Part shown: one piece after another, positions 1 to 56,853 of the stretch
Position numbering within the stretch: the first letter of the stretch is position 1
Layout: the number at the start of each line of letters is the position of its first letter
Sequence record: PQ604604
Strand: one strand, 5' to 3'
DNA: 64,000 nucleotides
Source of the DNA: Escherichia phage ECP_WGS_SA1
Notes under the pieces: generated by a model
Database searches by the model: none
The model's input: only the letters and a program-made list of their open reading frames with translations
Told to the model about the DNA's origin: nothing
Translations under genes and position numbers: made by a program

Positions 1-360
1 ATTTTGAATTAATTTAAATTAATTTTTTTCTACATCCTCATACTTATACTAAACTTATATTTATACGTATTATCCGTAAGATATAAGTAAAAACAAAGAC
101 TTGCGGCAATACGGATGATACGTCATGATACGCTTCAACCAGCCAGCAGCGGCTAAGTCATTGATTTGCATAACAAGCGGCGAAAGGGATGGATTTCTTT
201 TATGCGTATCAAACAGTACACCACGCACCACGGTCCGATATTCATTCAGCACTATGATTTATGTACGTTTACAGCCAATTTGAACATCAATCTGCACTTG
301 AATATAATGTTCATTCATTGTATAATTCACACTATTAATTTGCACTATGGGATTTGCACT

Positions 361-834
361 ATGAGTCAAGATTATGTAGCAATGCCTGAAGACTTTGAAG
401 ACCCGCGATTTGCAGAGCATAATCAGGCATTATTCGATGAGTTCATTGACCTTGTTATTCAGGGCCATGACATGCGCGCAGCTTTTGCACTAGTATTTGG
501 CATGGAGGTTGCGACCGATAACTACACTGGCCAGCGAATCCTGTGCACGCAGCGCAACCCGTACTACAAGATGCGCTACAAAAAGCGTATGGAAGAGATG
601 CCATTGAAGGAATTGTGGAGTGTAAAGAGTTCCATCCACAATTTAGTGAAGCTTGTGCGTGATCCAGAAGTCGCGGCTTCAGCCAAGCTTAATGCCATTC
701 GTGAACTGAATATCATCTACGGCATCACGATGATTGATGAAAATGGCAATAGTAAAATGGGCCGTTCCATGGACGATTTCTACAAGGATTTTGGAGAGGC
801 AGCCAAAGAGGGTGAGCAATTCTCCCGCCACTAG
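361..834 (+). CDS. Hypothetical protein, 157 aa; start chosen at the ATG embedded in the second repeat copy
   Basis: In-frame part of ORF 166..834; the region upstream of 361 is repeat-rich and looks non-coding. Confidence 0.5.
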   Translation: MSQDYVAMPEDFEDPRFAEHNQALFDEFIDLVIQGHDMRAAFALVFGMEVATDNYTGQRILCTQRNPYYKMRYKKRMEEMPLKELWSVKSSIHNLVKLVRDPEVAASAKLNAIRELNIIYGITMIDENGNSKMGRSMDDFYKDFGEAAKEGEQFSRH

Positions 835-2987: not shown

Positions 2988-3187
2988 NNNNNNNNNNNNN
3001 NNNNNNNNNNNNNNNNNNNNNNNNNNNNNNNNNNNNNNNNNNNNNNNNNNNNNNNNNNNNNNNNNNNNNNNNNNNNNNNNNNNNNNNNNNNNNNNNNNNN
3101 NNNNNNNNNNNNNNNNNNNNNNNNNNNNNNNNNNNNNNNNNNNNNNNNNNNNNNNNNNNNNNNNNNNNNNNNNNNNNNNNNNNNNNN
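2988..3187. other. Run of N (masked or unknown bases)
   Basis: Read directly. Confidence 0.99.
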
Positions 3188-3370
3188 TTTAAAATCGTCT
3201 CCTTATAATACCCTTCCGTTACTAATAGGCCGCGCTTAGTCGCGGCTTTTCTTCGTCCCTATCTCGATGCGCTTCTCCGCGAAAACTCCTTTATCCTTCC
3301 CTTCGTCGTCGCATAATCTTCGTCGAGATGCGCCTTAGTTCGCATAACAGGTATTACGTTAAATGGAGAA

Positions 3371-3452
3371 CATCGCGTAAGTCCTTGTTTTATATAGACA
3401 CCTATATCGGACCGTTAGGGAGGGTCGCGTAAGTCGTTGTTTTATAAAGGCG
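3371..3452 (+). repeat. Two direct copies of CGCGTAAGTCnTTGTTTTATA in an ORF-poor segment
   Basis: Read directly; shares the TTTTATA core with the 2454 and 2851 elements. Confidence 0.6.
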
Positions 3453-5666: not shown

Positions 5667-7070
5667 NNNAGCGCCTTGAGTGAATTATTTNGCTGCNTTC
5701 AGCGCGACTATNTCTGNNNNNNNNNNNNNNNNNNNNNNNNNNNNNNNNNNNNNNNNNNNNNNNNNNNNNNNNNNNNNNNNNNNNNNNNNNNNNNNNNNNN
5801 NNNNNNNNNNNNNNNNNNNNNNNNNNNNNNNNNNNNNNNNNNNNNNNNNNNNNNNNNNNNNNNNNNNNNNNNNNNNNNNNNNNNNNNNNNNNNNNNNNNN
5901 NNNNNNNNNNNNNNNNNNNNNNNNNNNNNNNNNNNNNNNNNNNNNNNNNNNNNNNNNNNNNNNNNNNNNNNNNNNNNNNNNNNNNNNNNNNNNNNNNNNN
6001 NNNNNNNNNNNNNNNNNNNNNNNNNNNNNNNNNNNNNNNNNNNNNNNNNNNNNNNNNNNNNNNNNNNNNNNNNNNNNNNNNNNNNNNNNNNNNNNNNNNN
6101 NNNNNNNNNNNNNNNNNNNNNNNNNNNNNNNNNNNNNNNNNNNNNNNNNNNNNNNNNNNNNNNNNNNNNNNNNNNNNNNNNNNNNNNNNNNNNNNNNNNN
6201 NNNNNNNNNNNNNNNNNNNNNNNNNNNNNNNNNNNNNNNNNNNNNNNNNNNNNNNNNNNNNNNNNNNNNNNNNNNNNNNNNNNNNNNNNNNNNNNNNNNN
6301 NNNNNNNNNNNNNNNNNNNNNNNNNNNNNNNNNNNNNNNNNNNNNNNNNNNNNNNNNNNNNNNNNNNNNNNNNNNNNNNNNNNNNNNNNNNNNNNNNNNN
6401 NNNNNNNNNNNNNNNNNNNNNNNNNNNNNNNNNNNNNNNNNNNNNNNNNNNNNNNNNNNNNNNNNNNNNNNNNNNNNNNNNNNNNNNNNNNNNNNNNNNN
6501 NNNNNNNNNNNNNNNNNNNNNNNNNNNNNNNNNNNNNNNNNNNNNNNNNNNNNNNNNNNNNNNNNNNNNNNNNNNNNNNNNNNNNNNNNNNNNNNNNNNN
6601 NNNNNNNNNNNNNNNNNNNNNNNNNNNNNNNNNNNNNNNNNNNNNNNNNNNNNNNNNNNNNNNNNNNNNNNNNNNNNNNNNNNNNNNNNNNNNNNNNNNN
6701 NNNNNNNNNNNNNNNNNNNNNNNNNNNNNNNNNNNNNNNNNNNNNNNNNNNNNNNNNNNNNNNNNNNNNNNNNNNNNNNNNNNNNNNNNNNNNNNNNNNN
6801 NNNNNNNNNNNNNNNNNNNNNNNNNNNNNNNNNNNNNNNNNNNNNNNNNNNNNNNNNNNNNNNNNNNNNNNNNNNNNNNNNNNNNNNNNNNNNNNNNNNN
6901 NNNNNNNNNNNNNNNNNNNNNNNNNNNNNNNNNNNNNNNNNNNNNNNNNNNNNNNNNNNNNNNNNNNNNNNNNNNNNNNNNNNNNNNNNNNNNNNNNNNN
7001 NNNNNNNNNNNNNNNNNNNNNNNNNNNNNNNNNNNNNNNNNNNNNNNNNNNNNNNNNNNNNNNNNNNNNN
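5667..7070. other. Almost fully masked block of N; adjacent N-runs at 5322-5605, 7194-7307 and 7354-7611
   Basis: Read directly. Confidence 0.99.
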
Positions 7071-8009
7071 NAGCAATTGTCCGTCTGCAACGACTTCATA
7101 CGGTTGAATATATGCACGACTGTCACGNAAGTGAAAATCACCAACNCCATAGTTCATNACACCGTTCATGCTTGGGCCAACGGTGCCTGTGTTNNNNNNN
7201 NNNNNNNNNNNNNNNNNNNNNNNNNNNNNNNNNNNNNNNNNNNNNNNNNNNNNNNNNNNNNNNNNNNNNNNNNNNNNNNNNNNNNNNNNNNNNNNNNNNN
7301 NNNNNNNTGATCCTGTGCCNCCCATGGAAGTTGGGACGATGCTTTGATCAGCNNNNNNNNNNNNNNNNNNNNNNNNNNNNNNNNNNNNNNNNNNNNNNNN
7401 NNNNNNNNNNNNNNNNNNNNNNNNNNNNNNNNNNNNNNNNNNNNNNNNNNNNNNNNNNNNNNNNNNNNNNNNNNNNNNNNNNNNNNNNNNNNNNNNNNNN
7501 NNNNNNNNNNNNNNNNNNNNNNNNNNNNNNNNNNNNNNNNNNNNNNNNNNNNNNNNNNNNNNNNNNNNNNNNNNNNNNNNNNNNNNNNNNNNNNNNNNNN
7601 NNNNNNNNNNNGATGCACCAGCATTTGCTGATTGATGATATTGACCAAACCATGAACCAGTCAAGGCATTGAGATTTATTCCGTTAGGAATCTCTCCAAA
7701 GTTTCGGACAGTACCCGTCAAAGTTGCGGCAGTGGTTCGAATAGAAAGCATGTCGCCAGCCGCCCATGCACGCGCTGCAGTTCCTTCCTGTGCACGCTGC
7801 ACGGTCAGGACGTTTCCAACAACGGCTGTTACTGTGACGATTTCGAATTGGAGGCCTGTTGCGGCGTCAACGATTGTCGCCACTACACGCTCGTTTGCGC
7901 CCAAGGTCGGAAAGCCCGACCCTGAGCGAATTGTGATTGTGGTGTCTGAAGTCGTCGTTGGCTGAGCGAGCGCGACCTCAAAGTTGTTTTTGAATATTAG
8001 CCTTGGCAT
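5685..8009 (-). CDS. Putative tail fibre or receptor-binding-like protein; largely masked by N, 3' end uncertain
   Basis: Long ORF with GAGGA upstream of the ATG at 8009; readable N-terminal 130 aa is rich in T/S/G/V as in phage fibre N-termini. Confidence 0.4.
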   Translation of the reverse strand: MPRLIFKNNFEVALAQPTTTSDTTITIRSGSGFPTLGANERVVATIVDAATGLQFEIVTVTAVVGNVLTVQRAQEGTAARAWAAGDMLSIRTTAATLTGTVRNFGEIPNGINLNALTGSWFGQYHQSANAGAXXXXXXXXXXXXXXXXXXXXXXXXXXXXXXXXXXXXXXXXXXXXXXXXXXXXXXXXXXXXXXXXXXXXXXXXXXXXXXXXXXXXXXXADQSIVPTSMXGTGSXXXXXXXXXXXXXXXXXXXXXXXXXXXXXXXXXXXXXXNTGTVGPSMNGXMNYXVGDFHXRDSRAYIQPYEVVADGQLXXXXXXXXXXXXXXXXXXXXXXXXXXXXXXXXXXXXXXXXXXXXXXXXXXXXXXXXXXXXXXXXXXXXXXXXXXXXXXXXXXXXXXXXXXXXXXXXXXXXXXXXXXXXXXXXXXXXXXXXXXXXXXXXXXXXXXXXXXXXXXXXXXXXXXXXXXXXXXXXXXXXXXXXXXXXXXXXXXXXXXXXXXXXXXXXXXXXXXXXXXXXXXXXXXXXXXXXXXXXXXXXXXXXXXXXXXXXXXXXXXXXXXXXXXXXXXXXXXXXXXXXXXXXXXXXXXXXXXXXXXXXXXXXXXXXXXXXXXXXXXXXXXXXXXXXXXXXXXXXXXXXXXXXXXXXXXXXXXXXXXXXXXXXXXXXXXXXXXXXXXXXXXXXXXXXXXXXXXXXXXXXXXXXXXXXXXXXXXXXXXXXXXXXXXXXXXXXXXXXXXXXXXXXXXXXXXXXXXXXXXXXXXXXXXXXXXIVALXAXK

Positions 8010-8819: not shown

Positions 8820-9030
8820 TTTCTTTCCACTCCACAAATGCACTTCCACTTGTTTCTCTATTTAGCAGGTATCTGCCGCGCATTCCATGAAGGCTGAACT
8901 CAACCGTCGATGGATTAGATTTTGAAAGCCACATCGCTTGACCGTCGAACGGTCCGCCAACGCATGTGTATTTAGCCTTTGGCTCACTCCTTTTGGGTCG
9001 CTTTGCCCGCTCTTTGATTGATAGTCTCAT
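8809..9030 (-). CDS. Hypothetical protein, 73 aa
   Basis: ORF; stop/start packing with neighbours. Confidence 0.35.
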   Translation of the reverse strand: MRLSIKERAKRPKRSEPKAKYTCVGGPFDGQAMWLSKSNPSTVEFSLHGMRGRYLLNRETSGSAFVEWKENGK

Positions 9031-9245
9031 CAGTCTTCACCTTGAGATTCCAGACAAGTAAGAACAAGCCACGTCATCGGAAGAATCAAAACCAGAGAAA
9101 TAAGGGACCAGATGGACCAGCACAAGATGACAGACTTGAATGTGTGAACGTCGCCAAACGCAGCAGTGAAACAAAATCCCATCACGAAAGCAAGCACAGT
9201 GGAGTGATTATCAATAGCTTTGATGGCACGGTCAATGAGTTTCAT
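9030..9245 (-). CDS. Small protein with two predicted transmembrane segments, 71 aa (holin-like topology)
   Basis: Two hydrophobic stretches and a charged C-terminus in the translation. Confidence 0.4.
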   Translation of the reverse strand: MKLIDRAIKAIDNHSTVLAFVMGFCFTAAFGDVHTFKSVILCWSIWSLISLVLILPMTWLVLTCLESQGED

Positions 9246-9422
9246 ATTACCTCCGGTTTTGAGTTAATATGATTATAACGCAGAGCTTCAGAAAGGCAAA
9301 CTTTTTGTGAATTTANNNTAAAAAAATGGCCAGANNGNNTCTGGCCAAAAGATCACCCTTTATCCACTACTAAGCTGGAATCATAATTTTACTTGATATA
9401 GCTGTCGCAAGCAAACTATAAT

Positions 9423-10883
9423 ATGAATAAAATATTAACACATAATTGGAAAGTCATGTACCAGTTGAATCCTGCTTTAAGAGAAGTCTGGAAGACGAAA
9501 GCGCGATACAAAGTTATATACGGCGGTCGTGCATCTTCCAAATCGCATGATGCCGCTGGTTTTGCTATTTATTTGGCGGCAAATTTTAAATTAAAATTCC
9601 TTTGCGTTCGACAATTCCAGAACAAGATTTCTGAATCAGTATATACGCTATTAAAAGACAAAATAGAAATTTCTGATTTCAAAGATGAGTTCAACTTATT
9701 AAAGAACTCCATTGAACACAAAAGAACAAAATCTGAATTCTTATTTTACGGTATCGCACGCAACGTTGACGAAATCAAATCAACAGAAGGTGTTGACGTT
9801 CTTTGGCTTGAAGAAGCGCACGCGCTGACTGAAGAGCAGTGGGATATTATTGAGCCGACAATTCGTAAGGAAGGGTCCGAAATATGGATCATATTTAACC
9901 CTGATGAAGAGGCTGATTTCGTCTACCAGAACTTTGTTATGCGACCGCCTAAAAATGCCATCGTTAAGAAAATTAACTGGCAGGACAATCCATTCTTGTC
10001 GCAAACAATGCTGGACGTTATCGCTGGCATGTATGAGCGCGACCCGAAAAAGGCAGAACACGTTTATGGCGGAGTACCGAAGACAGGCGGCGACAAGTCG
10101 GTCATCAACCGTGCATTCGTCAAGGCCGCGCTAAACCTCCACAAACACCCTACGTTGGGATGGAGGTTGTCAGGGTCTAACCGTATAGGCTTTGACGTGG
10201 CAGACGACGGCGACGACTTAAACGCCACAGCATTTGTCACGGGCAACGTATTGCGCGGCATCAAGACATGGGAAGGTCTGGAAGATGAATTGCTTAAGTC
10301 CGCAAGCGGAGTTTGGAAAGATGCATTAACATTCGGCGCATCAATTACCTATGACGCCATCGGTGTTGGTGCATTTGCTGGTTCAAAATTTGATGAGCTT
10401 AATGAGTATGCAATCCATGAAAATCCAACATTCCCAAGAATCGAATTTAATGCGTTCAACGCGCAAGGTGCTGTTGATGATCCTGATGACGTCTTCCTTG
10501 AGTTACCACACGTTGAAATACTCAATAAAGACCATTTCGCAAACATAAAAGCGCAAAAATGGACTGAGATTGCCGAACGATTCAGGAAGACATATGAGTA
10601 TGCAACAGGGCAGGCCGTATACCCGACTGATGAGCTGATTTCCATCGACACAGACGGCATTCCAGAACTTGGGATTCCTGCTTGGTCTGCGGAAGAAATT
10701 GAGACATTTCTTTTTGAGATGTCAGCGCCGCGCAAAGACACGTCTGTGCTTGGTAAGTTTAAAGTTGAATCGAAAAAGGATATGGCAAAGCGTGGAGTCA
10801 AATCGCCTAACAAAGCGGACGCAGCAATCATGGCGTTGATGAAACCAATTGTTGCAGCATCCGGCTTCTTCTCTAACCTTTAA
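9423..10883 (+). CDS. Terminase large subunit
   Basis: N-terminal P-loop (YGGRASSKSH) followed by an acidic nuclease-type C-terminal half; sits immediately before the portal gene. Confidence 0.85.
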   Translation: MNKILTHNWKVMYQLNPALREVWKTKARYKVIYGGRASSKSHDAAGFAIYLAANFKLKFLCVRQFQNKISESVYTLLKDKIEISDFKDEFNLLKNSIEHKRTKSEFLFYGIARNVDEIKSTEGVDVLWLEEAHALTEEQWDIIEPTIRKEGSEIWIIFNPDEEADFVYQNFVMRPPKNAIVKKINWQDNPFLSQTMLDVIAGMYERDPKKAEHVYGGVPKTGGDKSVINRAFVKAALNLHKHPTLGWRLSGSNRIGFDVADDGDDLNATAFVTGNVLRGIKTWEGLEDELLKSASGVWKDALTFGASITYDAIGVGAFAGSKFDELNEYAIHENPTFPRIEFNAFNAQGAVDDPDDVFLELPHVEILNKDHFANIKAQKWTEIAERFRKTYEYATGQAVYPTDELISIDTDGIPELGIPAWSAEEIETFLFEMSAPRKDTSVLGKFKVESKKDMAKRGVKSPNKADAAIMALMKPIVAASGFFSNL

Positions 10884-10886
10884 CAA

Positions 10887-11126
10887 TTAAAGCATTCCGT
10901 GCTGAAGGTCGAGTTTTCTTGCGGCAAACGACCTGGCACGGAATCGCTTACCCGCCCTTACTGCCTGTCGAATCTTCTTTTGCAAACACTTACGATCAAA
11001 ATCGTTGCGGTCGACGGCTTCGAGTAAATCACGACGCAGAGCACCCAGTGTCGACTTTTCAGAGACTTCAACGCCCAGCGCGGCTGCAACGTCTTTCAAA
11101 ACATCGAGTTCGGTTAAAGTTCTCAT
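10887..11126 (-). CDS. Hypothetical small protein, 79 aa, basic C-terminus
   Basis: ORF antisense to the flanking morphogenesis genes; 4-bp overlap with 11123..11539. Confidence 0.45.
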   Translation of the reverse strand: MRTLTELDVLKDVAAALGVEVSEKSTLGALRRDLLEAVDRNDFDRKCLQKKIRQAVRAGKRFRARSFAARKLDLQHGML

Positions 11127-11539
11127 TTGATAATCCCCTTGATGTCTGATTCTGCCATAAAGATTGGAGTTCCGCCGCCAGGAACAATCGAGCGCGTGAC
11201 TTTATCAAACATATCGTTTTCTTCAACTTGAATACGATAGAATTTATTTTTGGATGAAGATGGGCACAATCCCATAAATTTGCCGATTCCGCGAACGCAT
11301 TCATCTTCAAAGTATACTGTTTCACCTTGAATTGAGTCGATGTTGTCTACTGGATAGACCTTGCGGCCCAACAACCACTCATCCAAAGTCGCCTGCAAGA
11401 CGTTGCGCGCATCTAAAATCCACGGGTCAATAATAGCACCTTCGTATCGCGCAGCAGTGGCCTTTGCCAGTTCTTCATATTCGCATACGTTAACGACTTC
11501 GCCTTTATGCAAGACGACAAATACAATTGTTGTGCTCAT
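11123..11539 (-). CDS. Hypothetical protein, 138 aa
   Basis: ORF with strong AGGAGA RBS. Confidence 0.5.
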   Translation of the reverse strand: MSTTIVFVVLHKGEVVNVCEYEELAKATAARYEGAIIDPWILDARNVLQATLDEWLLGRKVYPVDNIDSIQGETVYFEDECVRGIGKFMGLCPSSSKNKFYRIQVEENDMFDKVTRSIVPGGGTPIFMAESDIKGIIK

Positions 11540-11701
11540 TTCAATCTCCTTTCGTTTGGTTAACTAAAATATAACTCAAAATGATACAAAAGCAAAATAT
11601 TTTATGAACTATTTATGATCACCATACATATCATTTGCTTACAAACACATGAATATTTATAATATAGATTGATTCCCTTTCACTGTCAGGTGGCGTTAAC
11701 A

Positions 11702-14077
11702 ATGAAAATTCTTGGCATAAAACTCTGGGAGAAGACGCAACCAGAAGCCGAACCAGCGGAGATGCCGCCAGGCGACCCATTGGCACCGTTTGAACGCCTT
11801 GAAAGGCGCGGCAGCGGTCAACGCTGGGAAAAGACTGAAAGCAATCGACCTACCTTTAAAACGGTTGATGACTTCCCTTTGTATGAGCCTGATATTAATG
11901 GCGACGGTGTTGCTATCATAAAAGGTCGTTCAGTCGATTCCGCAACAGTATCCAAAAAAGTTATGGATAATGCCTTGAAGAACATCAGTTCAGAAGGGCA
12001 GGTCAACCCATACACAGTACCTATTCAACTTCAAAACTGGTATTTGTCACAGTCATTCATCGGCTATCAAGCTTGCGCAATCATCGCGCAGCACTGGCTG
12101 GTGAACAAAGCGTGTTCCATGGTAGGCCGCGATGCAGTCCGTAAAGGCTGGGAAGTCAAATCCAGTTCTGAGTCCGAATTATCAGTGCAGGCCAGCGAAC
12201 GCCTAAAGCAAATTGATAAAGAATTTAATATCAAAGAGCACTTAGTTGAAGCCGAACGATTCAAAAATATTTTTGGTATCCGCGTCATCATATTTGATGT
12301 GCGTAGCGATGACCCAGAATACTACAGTAAACCTTTTAACATTGATGGTGTGACAAAGGGGTCTTATAAGGGGATCATTCAGGTTGACCCTTATTGGATG
12401 ATGCCATTTCTGACGTCTGAAAACACCGCCGACCCTGCTTCACAGCACTTTTATGATCCAGAATACTGGGTGATCAGCGGACAACGTTATCATCGCAGCC
12501 ACCTCATAATATTGCGCAACGATGAGCCAGCTGATATTCTTAAGCCGACTTACATCTACGGCGGCATTCCTCTAACTCAGCAGATTTATGAACGCATCTA
12601 TGCCGCTGAACGTACCGCTAACGAAGCACCATTGTTGGCGATGTCTAAACGTACAACGACACTACGGACCGACGTTGACAAGGCGATTGCCAATGAGCGG
12701 TCTTTTGCCGAACGCCTGATGATGTGGATTAAGTACCGCGACAACTATGCTGTTAAGGTACTTGGCCAAAAAGAAGAAATGGACCAGTTCGACATCAACT
12801 TGTCAGACTTCGACAGCATCATCATGAACCAGTACCAGCTGGTGGCCGCAATCGCAAAAGTTCCGTCGACCAAACTGCTTGGTACTTCGCCAAAAGGCTT
12901 TAACGCCACTGGTGAATTTGAGATGGTCAGCTATCACGAAGAGTTGGAAACGTGCCAGCAGCATGACCTGACAAAAATTCTCGACCGCCATTACAAAATC
13001 CTTCTCAAATCAGAAGGGGTGGAAGTCGACGTTAAGGTTGCATGGGAACCAGTTGGCTCACTTACTGCTACTCAACTTGCAGAAATCAACGACAAGCGAG
13101 CTAACACTGGCAAAACTCTCATTGATGCTGGCGTCATTTCTCCTGATGAAGAGCGCGACCGCATCAAAGACGACAAAAACAGCGGTTACAACCGTCTGCC
13201 GGAAGATGCAGCAGAAGAAACCCCAGGGATGTCTCCAGAGAATATGGCATTGCTTGGCAAGTCTGCTGGTGAAGTCCTGCAAGGTAAGGCTGATATTGAA
13301 CAGGCAAAAGCTGATGTCGTTAAGATGGGCGGCCAGTTCTACAGTGAAACAGGTATTATGCCAGAAGGTGCCGCGCGTGGTGAGTTGGCGGAAAACCCTG
13401 ACAGAGCACCTGTCGAAATTAACATGGACGATACCGATGATGAATCAAACCATCAGGTTGATGTCCTAACGCAGTTGAAAGAAGGTCTGGAGGGTATTGC
13501 GGATTACTACCTGAAAGAAGGTCAGGATGTGGATTTTGACCCTCAAAAAGATTCACGGTCGGTGCAGCCGTCTACCCTTCCAAGCGTCAAAGGTAATGTC
13601 GTAAACTTACGACACAACGTTGGCAAGATGGACGCAGCATCATTACCTAAGATGAAGTTGCACGGAATGATTCTTGGGATTGAGAACCCTCGCAACAGCA
13701 TCCGTAGAGGAAATAGCCTTGACGGTGAATGGGCAGTCAAGATGCCGCACCATTACGGATTCATCAAAGGCACCAAGGGCGCGGACGGCGATGAAGTCGA
13801 CTGCTTTGTTGGCACAAATCTGAAGTCGCCGAAGGTCTTTATCGTGAACCAAAACGATAACTACTCTGGCGAGTTCGATGAACACAAGTGCATGCTTGGA
13901 TTCGATTCAGCAGAAGAAGCAAAAGAAGCTTATCAGGCATCATTTGGTAACGGTTGGAACGGATTCGACTCAATCCACGAATTAGATGTGAACTCATTCA
14001 AAGAGTGGTTGAAGGGTGATTGCTCTCAAGCATACGGAGCACTCAATAATCCTACTAATTCACCGAAGCAAGGTTGA
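11702..14077 (+). CDS. Portal protein with a C-terminal extension carrying an inorganic-pyrophosphatase-like signature (DGDEVDC at 13784-13804)
   Basis: Position between terminase and MuF-like gene; size; C-terminal YGFIKGTKGADGDEVDCFVG resembles the family I PPase motif. Confidence 0.6.
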   Translation: MKILGIKLWEKTQPEAEPAEMPPGDPLAPFERLERRGSGQRWEKTESNRPTFKTVDDFPLYEPDINGDGVAIIKGRSVDSATVSKKVMDNALKNISSEGQVNPYTVPIQLQNWYLSQSFIGYQACAIIAQHWLVNKACSMVGRDAVRKGWEVKSSSESELSVQASERLKQIDKEFNIKEHLVEAERFKNIFGIRVIIFDVRSDDPEYYSKPFNIDGVTKGSYKGIIQVDPYWMMPFLTSENTADPASQHFYDPEYWVISGQRYHRSHLIILRNDEPADILKPTYIYGGIPLTQQIYERIYAAERTANEAPLLAMSKRTTTLRTDVDKAIANERSFAERLMMWIKYRDNYAVKVLGQKEEMDQFDINLSDFDSIIMNQYQLVAAIAKVPSTKLLGTSPKGFNATGEFEMVSYHEELETCQQHDLTKILDRHYKILLKSEGVEVDVKVAWEPVGSLTATQLAEINDKRANTGKTLIDAGVISPDEERDRIKDDKNSGYNRLPEDAAEETPGMSPENMALLGKSAGEVLQGKADIEQAKADVVKMGGQFYSETGIMPEGAARGELAENPDRAPVEINMDDTDDESNHQVDVLTQLKEGLEGIADYYLKEGQDVDFDPQKDSRSVQPSTLPSVKGNVVNLRHNVGKMDAASLPKMKLHGMILGIENPRNSIRRGNSLDGEWAVKMPHHYGFIKGTKGADGDEVDCFVGTNLKSPKVFIVNQNDNYSGEFDEHKCMLGFDSAEEAKEAYQASFGNGWNGFDSIHELDVNSFKEWLKGDCSQAYGALNNPTNSPKQG

Positions 14078-22134: not shown

Positions 22135-23673
22135 GTGATCAGTCAATCTCGTTATATTAAAATTGTATCAGGGGTCGGAGCAGGCGCGGCTGTTGCAGTT
22201 CGCAAACTGTCGCTTCGCGTCATGACTTCTAATACAGTTCTGCCGCCGGGCATTGTAGCAGAATTTTCAACGGCTGATGCTGTTGGATCATATTTCGGTT
22301 ATTCTTCCGAAGAATATAAGCGCGCAGCATTATATTTTGGATTCATCAGCAAGCAAATTAACTCGCCTGATTCAATCAGCTTCTCGCGTATTGTTTCAAC
22401 TGCGATTCCAGCAATGGTCATCGGTGATGCTGAGCCTAAAGTGCTTGCTACGTTTCAAGCATTCACTGGCGCTATTTTAAGCATCACTTATGATGGCACA
22501 GACTACCTGACTGACGCAATTAACCTTTCAGCGGCAACAAGTCTGGCGAATGTGGCTGAACTTCTGGAAACGGCAATCAATACTAAATTTGCAGCAGAAG
22601 GGGGCACGTCGGTGCCTGCACTTGCTGATGCAGAAGTGTATTGGAACGCTAATACTCAGCAGTTCACGCTGGAAGCAGCGCCGTCGACCGCTGGCGCAGG
22701 CAATCTGTCTATCAACGTCACAGGCCAACCGACCGACCCGTCTCAAGCATTAGGTTGGACCACCACTGGCACCGTAACCGTTGCAGGCCAGGGCGTTTCA
22801 AGTCCGGTAGAAGCCATCGCGGCATCTGTGGAAATCTCCAACAACTTTGGCTCATTCCTTTTTGCTGGGGCTGACCGAACTCTGGAAGAAATTACCGCTG
22901 TGGCAGCGTGGACTCATTCGCAGAATAATATGTACATGTATTTATTCTCGACTTCGTTCGCTAATATCGGGTCATACTACACCTCTCTGAAAGGGTACTC
23001 AGGCGTTGGCATGATGATTCGCGCAACTAACCTTGCAAACGATTACATCGACCAAGCACCTGCTGAAATCCTCGCGGCGACAAACTATAATACTGTGAAT
23101 GCGACTCAAAACTACATGTATTATCAGTTTGATACTCGCAACGTGACTGTTTCAACTGACTCTCGTGCAGACACTGCTGATCAAAACCGTGCTAACTACA
23201 TCGGTGCAACTCAGCAGGCCGGACAAACCTTGGCATTCTTCCAGCGCGGCGTATTGATGGGCGGGTCTACCGCAGCAGTTGACATGAATACTTATGCCAA
23301 CGAGATGTGGCTTAAATCTGCTATCACTTCTCAGCTGTTCAGCATGTTCTTGAATCTTGGTCGCGTGCCTGCAAACGAAGAAGGTAAAGCGACTGTACAA
23401 GCCATGATTCAAGTTGCTGTTGACAATGCGAAGGTTAACGGCACCATCTCTGTTGGCAAGGCGCTGACTGAGATTCAGAAACAATACATCACGCAAACTT
23501 CCGGTGACAACACTGCTTGGCGGCAGGTTGAAACTATCGGTTACTGGCTGACTGTAGATTTTGATACTGAAACCACTTCCGATGGGCGCACCGAATACTA
23601 TGCAACATACACGCTAATCTACTCTAAAGATGATGCTGTGCGTCGCGTTGAAGGTCGTGACGTCCTTATCTAA
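22135..23673 (+). CDS. Putative tail sheath protein
   Basis: 512-aa ORF (GTG start with AAGAGG RBS) immediately upstream of tube-like genes. Confidence 0.55.
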   Translation: MISQSRYIKIVSGVGAGAAVAVRKLSLRVMTSNTVLPPGIVAEFSTADAVGSYFGYSSEEYKRAALYFGFISKQINSPDSISFSRIVSTAIPAMVIGDAEPKVLATFQAFTGAILSITYDGTDYLTDAINLSAATSLANVAELLETAINTKFAAEGGTSVPALADAEVYWNANTQQFTLEAAPSTAGAGNLSINVTGQPTDPSQALGWTTTGTVTVAGQGVSSPVEAIAASVEISNNFGSFLFAGADRTLEEITAVAAWTHSQNNMYMYLFSTSFANIGSYYTSLKGYSGVGMMIRATNLANDYIDQAPAEILAATNYNTVNATQNYMYYQFDTRNVTVSTDSRADTADQNRANYIGATQQAGQTLAFFQRGVLMGGSTAAVDMNTYANEMWLKSAITSQLFSMFLNLGRVPANEEGKATVQAMIQVAVDNAKVNGTISVGKALTEIQKQYITQTSGDNTAWRQVETIGYWLTVDFDTETTSDGRTEYYATYTLIYSKDDAVRRVEGRDVLI

Positions 23674-30732: not shown

Positions 30733-30789
30733 AATATTGCTTATAGACTCCTTATAGATTATAATTTGTTGATCATATATAAGGAGTCT

Positions 30790-56795: not shown

Positions 56796-56853
56796 TTTGC
56801 TTTTATTTTTCTAGCAACTATAATCATTTTATGAACTGAAGCAGAGGTGATTT

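Follow-up and report, generated by a model that had tools for sequence, protein, structure and literature searches.

What are two small minus-strand genes doing between the plus-strand terminase and portal genes of Escherichia phage ECP_WGS_SA1? The pair occupies positions 10887..11539 of a 64,000-nucleotide (nt) stretch of this genome (sequence record PQ604604), referred to here as the window. An original prediction, made from the letters of that stretch, had read the pair as an independently transcribed moron placed between two genes that are normally adjacent, and had likened it to toxin-antitoxin or anti-defence cassettes. Comparison with related phages indicates instead that the pair is the minimal Wifcevirus form of a leftward block, which lies between TerL and the portal gene across a supergroup (Pbunavirus, Kylevirus, Wifcevirus and metagenomic relatives) and is vertically inherited.

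Both open reading frames (ORFs) were confirmed, together with the details that had been reported for them. The first gene encodes 138 amino acids (aa) and spans 11123..11539 on the minus strand (gp020 of vB_EcoM_WFH, hereafter WFH, and gp35 of vB_Eco4M-7). Its AGGAGA ribosome-binding site (11545..11550, minus strand) is located 5 nt upstream of the ATG at 11539 and is kept in 10 genomes. The second gene encodes 79 aa (10887..11126, minus strand; WFH gp019 and vB_Eco4M-7 gp34), is preceded by a Shine-Dalgarno-like AAGGGGA (11140..11134, minus strand), and specifies a basic C terminus, with Lys or Arg at 10 of the final 30 residues. Stop and start codons of the two genes overlap by 4 bp in an ATGA (11123..11126, minus strand), and the translational coupling proposed for the pair is supported. 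TerL (9456..10883, plus strand; Pfam Terminase_3, 3e-37) converges on the pair, with 3 nt separating its stop codon from that of the 79-aa gene.

In 10 Wifcevirus-type genomes, the ratio of nonsynonymous to synonymous substitution rates (dN/dS) is 0.085 for the 138-aa gene and 0.055 for the 79-aa gene, with dS values of up to 0.5-1.1; for TerL and portal, the same genomes give 0.013-0.014. Both small ORFs are genuine genes under purifying selection, beyond what chance would produce. They carry a coding sequence annotation in all annotated relatives, and in WFH gp020 and gp019 are labelled "hypothetical protein". Masking affects parts of the window, which contains 32 runs of N (3144 bases, the largest at 5717..7071) covering most of a tail-fibre gene (5685..8009) and a few bases within a terminator at 9327..9347; unmasked WFH sequence (L004) was substituted at these positions. 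One copy of the 138-aa gene, found in a Logan contig (P0008, 156 aa), shifts after residue ∼98 into an overlapping frame (window ORF 11068..11325), which most likely reflects a frameshift or faulty assembly rather than a variant protein.

Within Wifcevirus, conservation of the pair is complete. The region is 91-98% identical to 28 Wifcevirus records (E. coli/Shigella myoviruses), window coordinates agree with those of WFH, and both genes were found in all 28 records with 94-100% amino-acid identity. Their GC content (0.44-0.48 versus 0.42-0.51 in TerL and portal) reveals no compositional difference. In the closest outgroup, the metagenomic lineage L008, the 138-aa protein is 53% identical to its counterpart, and TerL is 91% identical. 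Separately, in a Wifcevirus-like genome from one E. coli assembly (L018; GCA_018093385.1, contig ABADYA010000024.1), the 138-aa gene (3001..3417) has a dS of 1.13 relative to the window versus 0.32-0.58 for its immediate neighbours, which suggests that this allele has been replaced by recombination. The 68.6-kb contig resembles a phage genome within a bacterial assembly.

Homologs were also found outside Wifcevirus. The 138-aa protein is homologous to gp028 of Pantoea phage Kyle (pairwise 1e-9) and matches LBL3 gp14 and 14-1 gp17, which are ORF16 of Pbunavirus (BLASTP 1e-10; local hidden Markov model (HMM) search 2e-41 and 8e-38), whereas the homolog of the 79-aa protein in Kyle is gp026 (pairwise 6e-11), and none was detected in Pbunavirus by local HMM search. 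Members of both families were matched by local HMM searches in the metagenomic lineages L008, L009, L026, and L027. The 138-aa family is narrow: when 1.84 billion representative proteins were searched exhaustively with its profile, only 18 clusters were returned, and a scan of IMG/VR for further relatives yielded no phages beyond those already found.

The number of minus-strand genes between TerL and portal varies considerably among these phages. There is one in Luteibacter phage Pluto, two in Wifcevirus, four in L008 and in Burkholderia phage WTB, five in Kyle (gp028-gp024; Kylevirus), five to six in L009, L026, and L027, and 13-14 in Pbunavirus (14-1 gp04-gp17, LBL3 gp03-gp14), whereas in BcepF1 the interval holds two plus-strand genes instead. 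Where a member of the 138-aa family is present, it is in every case the first gene divergent from portal. In the enterobacterial-type relatives, the order is a 138-aa family gene, a Trypsin_2 protease gene, a gene of the ∼75-aa family to which the 79-aa protein belongs, a ∼100-aa gene, and a DUF2786/DUF7168 gene that touches or overlaps the stop codon of the convergent TerL. The 79-aa family accompanies the 138-aa family in six of the six enterobacterial-type lineages, with the order kept. The protease is found in four of the five lineages of this type other than Wifcevirus (L008, Kyle, L009, and L027), and in L026 a 45-aa ORF rather than a protease lies between the 138-aa and ∼75-aa family genes. 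The relatives' Trypsin_2 proteins are serine proteases of ∼180-200 aa (L008 6411..7019, L009 1857..2417, L027 5414..6013, and Kyle gp027), distinct from the phage head maturation protease, which is a separate gene; their protease domain weakly matches the PADLOC models RT-Protease_XI (9e-9) and LmuA (2e-4).

Two sets of relatives are the closest counterparts of the Wifcevirus pair. Like the Pbunavirus early region, it is divergent from portal and convergent with TerL, in the same position and orientation; its 138-aa protein is orthologous to ORF16, with which that block begins, and the DUF2786/DUF7168 family of the window's relatives recurs there as 14-1 gp08. Unlike it, Wifcevirus has two genes rather than 13-14, lacks gp12, YIP, and DUF2786, and shows no terminator until past TerL, whereas in Pbunavirus a terminator is annotated before TerL. 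In Kyle, L008, L009, L026, and L027, both Wifcevirus proteins have homologs in the same order and place, but these blocks add the Trypsin_2 protease (in four of the five), the ∼100-aa gene, and the DUF2786/DUF7168 gene.

These comparisons bear directly on the idea of an insert. The adjacency of terminase and portal, from which that idea started, does not apply in this lineage, in which relatives carry genes in between. When terminase-portal junctions are compared for presence or absence of the pair, it is present in 28/28 Wifcevirus genomes, and homologs occupy the same site and orientation in Kylevirus, the four metagenomic lineages, and Pbunavirus (138-aa gene only). Conservation of the pair at this position together with clear morphogenetic homologs had been named as what would speak against a moron; the position is conserved across relatives, but no morphogenetic homologs were found. 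What stands of the moron is a separate opposite-strand unit with a promoter-like element (11595..11568) in a conserved divergent spacer. What does not stand is the insert, in view of its presence in all Wifcevirus genomes, its normal GC content, its lack of a terminator of its own, and its same-site homologs. Phage morons, e.g. the independently transcribed inserts in late operons of lambdoid phages, are likewise small units with their own promoter on the other strand amid head and packaging genes, but the Wifcevirus pair differs from them in being invariant in presence, compositionally ordinary, and without its own terminator.

How, then, did two genes that are separated in relatives come to overlap? 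The Wifcevirus junction reads ...GGGGATTATCAAATGA, and the junction between the 138-aa and protease genes in L008 reads ...GGGGATTGTGAAATGA. In Wifcevirus, a junction of the 138-aa/protease type leads straight into the beginning of the 79-aa gene; the protease ORF was therefore cleanly deleted, and the ATGA overlap is the scar that this left. The Trypsin_2 protease, ∼100-aa, and DUF2786/DUF7168 genes are absent from the Wifcevirus genome, and no relocated protease or DUF2786 copies were found in the Wifcevirus sequences searched; L008 retains both. Taken together, the junction and the gene order in relatives indicate that the protease and DUF2786 genes have disappeared from Wifcevirus, and that the 4-bp overlap was inherited from a 138-aa/protease overlap rather than being ancestral to an obligate two-gene pair. 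Because 138-aa and 79-aa family genes are parted by one or two genes in relatives, their tight overlap is secondary.

The pair and the portal gene (11702..14077, plus strand) diverge from a 162-bp spacer (11540..11701) that is exceptionally conserved, with five variable columns out of 171 in the alignment of 10 genomes. Its Jukes-Cantor distance is 0.009 versus a dS of 0.22-0.43 in the flanking genes, i.e. it evolves ∼25-45 times more slowly than synonymous sites. It contains two candidate sigma-70-type promoters placed back-to-back, TTGCTT-16-TATATT for the cassette (11568..11595, minus strand) and TTGCTT-17-TATAAT for portal and the structural operon (11635..11663, plus strand). The −10 element of the former ends 29 nt before the ATG, and its hexamers and spacing are kept in L008; at a position equivalent to the latter, a sigma-70 promoter is annotated in 14-1 and LBL3. 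The motif TTGCTT-N16/17-TATAWT occurs five times in the window versus 0.06 expected.

Downstream of the pair, terminator prediction over 9348..11700 found no terminator on either strand, thus none directly after the 79-aa gene. The 160 nt beyond the stop codon of this gene fold no better than shuffled sequences (z = −1.7), and no hidden terminator hairpin is claimed there; an Rfam scan of 9000..12000 returned nothing real. A strong intrinsic terminator on the strand of the pair (9327..9347, minus strand; 8-bp stem, T7 tail, −13.6 kcal/mol), also annotated in WFH, lies 109 nt past the TerL start codon and past the TerL promoter (TTGATA-18-TATAAT, 11/12 matches; 9393..9422, plus strand), and is followed by a new promoter for the next minus-strand operon. 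In L008, L026, and L027, in which TerL is preceded by TTGATT-18-TATAAT, the top-ranked terminator of the scanned region lies 72-94 nt past the TerL ATG on the cassette strand (−14.9 to −18.6 kcal/mol). The position is shared between Wifcevirus and these three lineages (72-109 nt past the TerL ATG, top-ranked in each of the four), and the stem sequences are unrelated. Because no terminator follows the 79-aa gene, the transcript probably continues past it. A terminator beyond TerL is sensible only if minus-strand transcripts cross TerL, and the cassette comprises the only minus-strand genes upstream; we therefore infer that the cassette unit extends antisense across TerL and its promoter. The transcript would probably run through the whole of TerL, and the terminator at 9327..9347 would form its 3′ end. 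The terminators of the three metagenomic lineages (L008 9601..9640, L027 8830..8883, L026 6663..6708) are followed within about 22-26 nt by the next start codon on the same strand, which leaves no room for a promoter, so that the next genes may need partial terminator read-through.

The absence of a recognisable motif in either protein, as originally reported, holds. Sequence and profile searches of Pfam, PHROGs, NCBIfam, PADLOC, and PDB gave no significant match for either of them, and no toxin, antitoxin, or defence family was matched in Pfam, NCBIfam, PADLOC, or PDB profiles. Matches to phrog_5124 and phrog_2130 are weak (E = 1.8e-4 and 4.6e-3) and concern families with no assigned function. 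Pfam hits to CarD_TRCF_RID and WGR for the 138-aa protein, and to Ubiquitin_TPR1 and JIP_LZII for the 79-aa protein, are far under the cut-off and are not repeated across family members; they were rejected. The AlphaFold model of the 138-aa protein (predicted local distance difference test (pLDDT) 84.5, predicted template modelling score 0.73) consists of an N-terminal alpha/beta domain of beta-beta-alpha-beta topology and, after it, a small beta-barrel. By a structural similarity test on this confident model, the C-terminal half is predicted to be a small beta-barrel of the SH3/Sm/Tudor type. Foldseek comparison with viral models retrieved only the protein's own family, and fold searches of BFVD and PDB gave no annotated match. 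The invariant residues of the family are Gly, Trp, Asp, Ala, Met, and hydrophobics, among which there is no catalytic-looking motif. The model of the 79-aa protein (pLDDT 82) shows a helix (residues 6-17), a loop, and a single long helix (27-78, 52 residues), the C-terminal third of which is basic.

Published data suggest that the pair is non-structural, and they label its Pbunavirus counterpart as early. Mass spectrometry (MS) of vB_Eco4M-7 and ECML-117 preparations identified 33 and 28 proteins, respectively; portal is among these, whereas gp34, gp35, and their equivalents are missing (PMC7048862). vB_Eco4M-7 gp35, chosen as the gene immediately 3′ of a transcription start site, could be HiBiT-tagged to give a fully viable phage (336 versus 332 plaques) (PMC11074155). 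The pair therefore looks non-structural, since it is missing from the MS of preparations and a tag on gp35 is tolerated. The Pbunavirus TerL-portal block has been termed the "early genome region", and among 38 ORFans screened from this region of 14-1, LMA2, and LBL3, a set for which ORF16 membership is not stated, effects on the host were seen just for the YIP peptide (14-1 gp11) and for gp12, which inhibits transcription (PMC8085984). Both of these 14-1 genes are located within the TerL-portal block. gp12 is thought to bind the alpha subunit of RNA polymerase (PMC10914365). It was considered as the ortholog of the 138-aa protein and rejected, since gp12 is ORF12 (DUF6011, 310 aa) and the ortholog is gp17/ORF16. 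Antisense transcripts across structural genes have been described in PAK_P3 and LUZ19 (PMC10914365). Wifceviruses themselves have scarcely been studied, but they are sensitive to immunity from K-12 cryptic prophages (PMC11990801).

The explanation that we favour, and hold to be somewhat likelier right than wrong, is that the pair is the remnant of a lineage-wide leftward block of non-structural, probably early genes, with its own sigma-70-type promoter, which encodes a barrel-based binder and a basic helical partner, and whose transcript probably runs antisense over TerL. The pair would be transcribed from its own promoter, back-to-back with that of portal. The 138-aa protein of the ORF16 family would serve in binding or as an adaptor, with an SH3/Sm-like barrel as its scaffold and no catalytic motif, and the small, basic 79-aa protein, probably oligomeric, would most likely bind nucleic acid or an acidic partner. 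The two would probably act jointly and at an early stage of infection, with a process of the host or of the phage as their target, rather than as toxin and antitoxin. Their transcript, probably running on antisense over TerL and its promoter to 9347..9327, could damp or delay TerL expression. The mechanism assigned to the proteins is the weakest part of this explanation.

Several observations weigh against it. Promoter use, timing, and read-through are read from motifs and their positions. Early timing is not demonstrated, because portal is served by the same type of promoter as the cassette, and the "early" label of the Pbunavirus block, by analogy with which the pair may be early, comes from the literature. 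Local HMM searches did not reveal the 79-aa family in Pbunavirus. Finally, the antisense architecture is not universal, because Kyle has no terminator beyond TerL and in LBL3 a terminator is annotated between the last block gene and TerL.

A bolder version of the favoured explanation, possible but doubtful in our view, makes the locus a timing switch for packaging. Leftward transcription would repress TerL, through transcriptional interference or antisense pairing, for as long as the leftward promoter is active, and the proteins of 138 and 79 aa would together constitute a new early regulator with two components. For convergent or antisense regulation in phages, there are precedents in the "anti-late" RNAs of T4 and in pR/pL interference in coliphage 186. 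The Wifcevirus architecture resembles these systems in predicting an early-type transcript antisense over the late gene TerL and its promoter; it differs in that the prediction is drawn from promoter and terminator positions.

The pair might alternatively neutralise a host defence system early in infection, as many small early phage ORFans do. The genes are small, non-structural, and beside a promoter, they evolve relatively fast (53% identity to L008 versus 91% for TerL), one allele of the 138-aa gene bears signs of replacement by recombination (dS of 1.13 versus 0.3-0.6 for its neighbours), and Wifceviruses are notably affected by cryptic-prophage immunity (PMC11990801). However, variability is the usual pattern among known anti-defence loci ("accessory islands"), whereas this pair is universal and fixed in position even in distant relatives, and searches of BFVD, PDB, and PADLOC, which did not include a dedicated anti-defence library, linked neither protein to a known anti-defence protein by family or fold. 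We consider such a counter-immunity role unlikely.

No likelier is a role in morphogenesis or packaging, in which the two proteins, as non-virion chaperones or regulators of portal/terminase assembly, would owe their location to this function. Deep and tight synteny with portal and TerL is what such helpers would show, the cassette and portal promoters are of one type, and in relatives a serine protease is encoded between both genes. Yet the pair lies on the strand opposite to the structural operon, is under constraint 4-6 times weaker than that on TerL and portal, is not detected by MS in phage preparations (PMC7048862), and is harmlessly tagged in gp35 (PMC11074155). In addition, the head maturation protease is encoded elsewhere in the phage, and the counterpart region of Pbunavirus encodes host-directed proteins. 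Nor is either gene the small terminase: a TerS homolog is encoded by another gene (202..834, plus strand; longest ORF from 166), which matches the small terminase of Pbunavirus E217 (PDB 7UXE, E = 6.6e-31), and neither family profile of the pair matches PDB sequences.

Could the unit matter chiefly as RNA? The main purpose of its promoter would then be to send convergent, antisense transcription across TerL and the TerL promoter in order to set timing, with the proteins being secondary. This is consistent with the strong terminators of unrelated sequence that lie just past the TerL promoter in four of the five enterobacterial-type lineages, and with the status of TerL as a lone opposite-strand island with its own promoter. 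Convergent genes abut or overlap TerL in all enterobacterial-type lineages, which leaves no room for a terminator in between. On the other hand, this terminator layout is not shared by Kyle and Pbunavirus, and the proteins do matter, because purifying selection clearly acts on the protein sequences of both ORFs. We regard an RNA-centred function as distinctly unlikely.

That the two genes form a moron-borne module of the toxin-antitoxin or abortive type is highly improbable: the pair resembles type II systems in consisting of two small, translationally coupled genes in a separate orientation with a 4-bp overlap, but it matches no toxin-antitoxin or defence family, its genes are non-adjacent in relatives, in which one or two genes intervene, so that the overlap is a deletion scar, its distribution is vertical and syntenic rather than patchy, with normal GC content and no dedicated terminator, only gp12 and YIP affected growth among the 38 Pbunavirus early-region ORFans (PMC8085984; inclusion of ORF16 not stated), and an addiction module is of little use to a virulent phage with a very short cycle.

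On the reading that we favour, the remnant of an early block, an apparent foreign cassette is recast: a non-structural block that spans the lineage has the 138-aa ORF16 family as its one constant opening gene, regularly partnered in enterobacterial-type lineages by the 79-aa protein. It was already known that these genes are annotated as hypothetical in dozens of genomes, and that the block is visible in annotated Pbunavirus genomes and treated as early in the literature. New findings are the orthology links, a reconstruction of how the block was reduced, the position of TerS, and a terminator conserved beyond TerL, which would imply antisense read-through. Wifceviruses and Pbunavirus already serve, or are under consideration, in phage therapy and diagnostics, although for most of their non-structural genes no function is known. 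Wifcevirus is convenient for studying what the block does, because it carries the smallest natural version (two genes) in a tractable E. coli system. The putative antisense read-through offers a concrete idea for how packaging might be timed in phages with a solitary inverted TerL. Should none of these readings hold, the finding reduces to two conserved hypothetical genes.

Additional features of the window concern the flanking genes and promoter motifs. TerL is a lone plus-strand gene (9393..10883 including its own strong promoter) with minus-strand genes on either side, and this inverted-island layout is also found in 14-1, L008, L026, and L027. The TerS homolog at 202..834 sits 8.6 kb from TerL and corresponds to WFH gp001, which is labelled just "hypothetical protein"; the examined parts of Bas99 likewise carry no small terminase annotation. 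The portal protein (Phage_portal_3, 5e-88) has a C-terminal InPase domain (PF18823, residues 660-782, 8e-46), which is elsewhere found in large polyvalent phage proteins, and in Luteibacter phage Pluto the entire gene is annotated "inorganic pyrophosphatase". The three other copies of TTGCTT-N16/17-TATAWT are at 22329..22356 (minus strand), 30737..30765 (plus strand), and 56797..56824 (plus strand). The minus-strand copy (22356..22329) falls in the stretch taken as the structural module (about 14-38 kb), and this promoter-like sequence could drive an antisense transcript.

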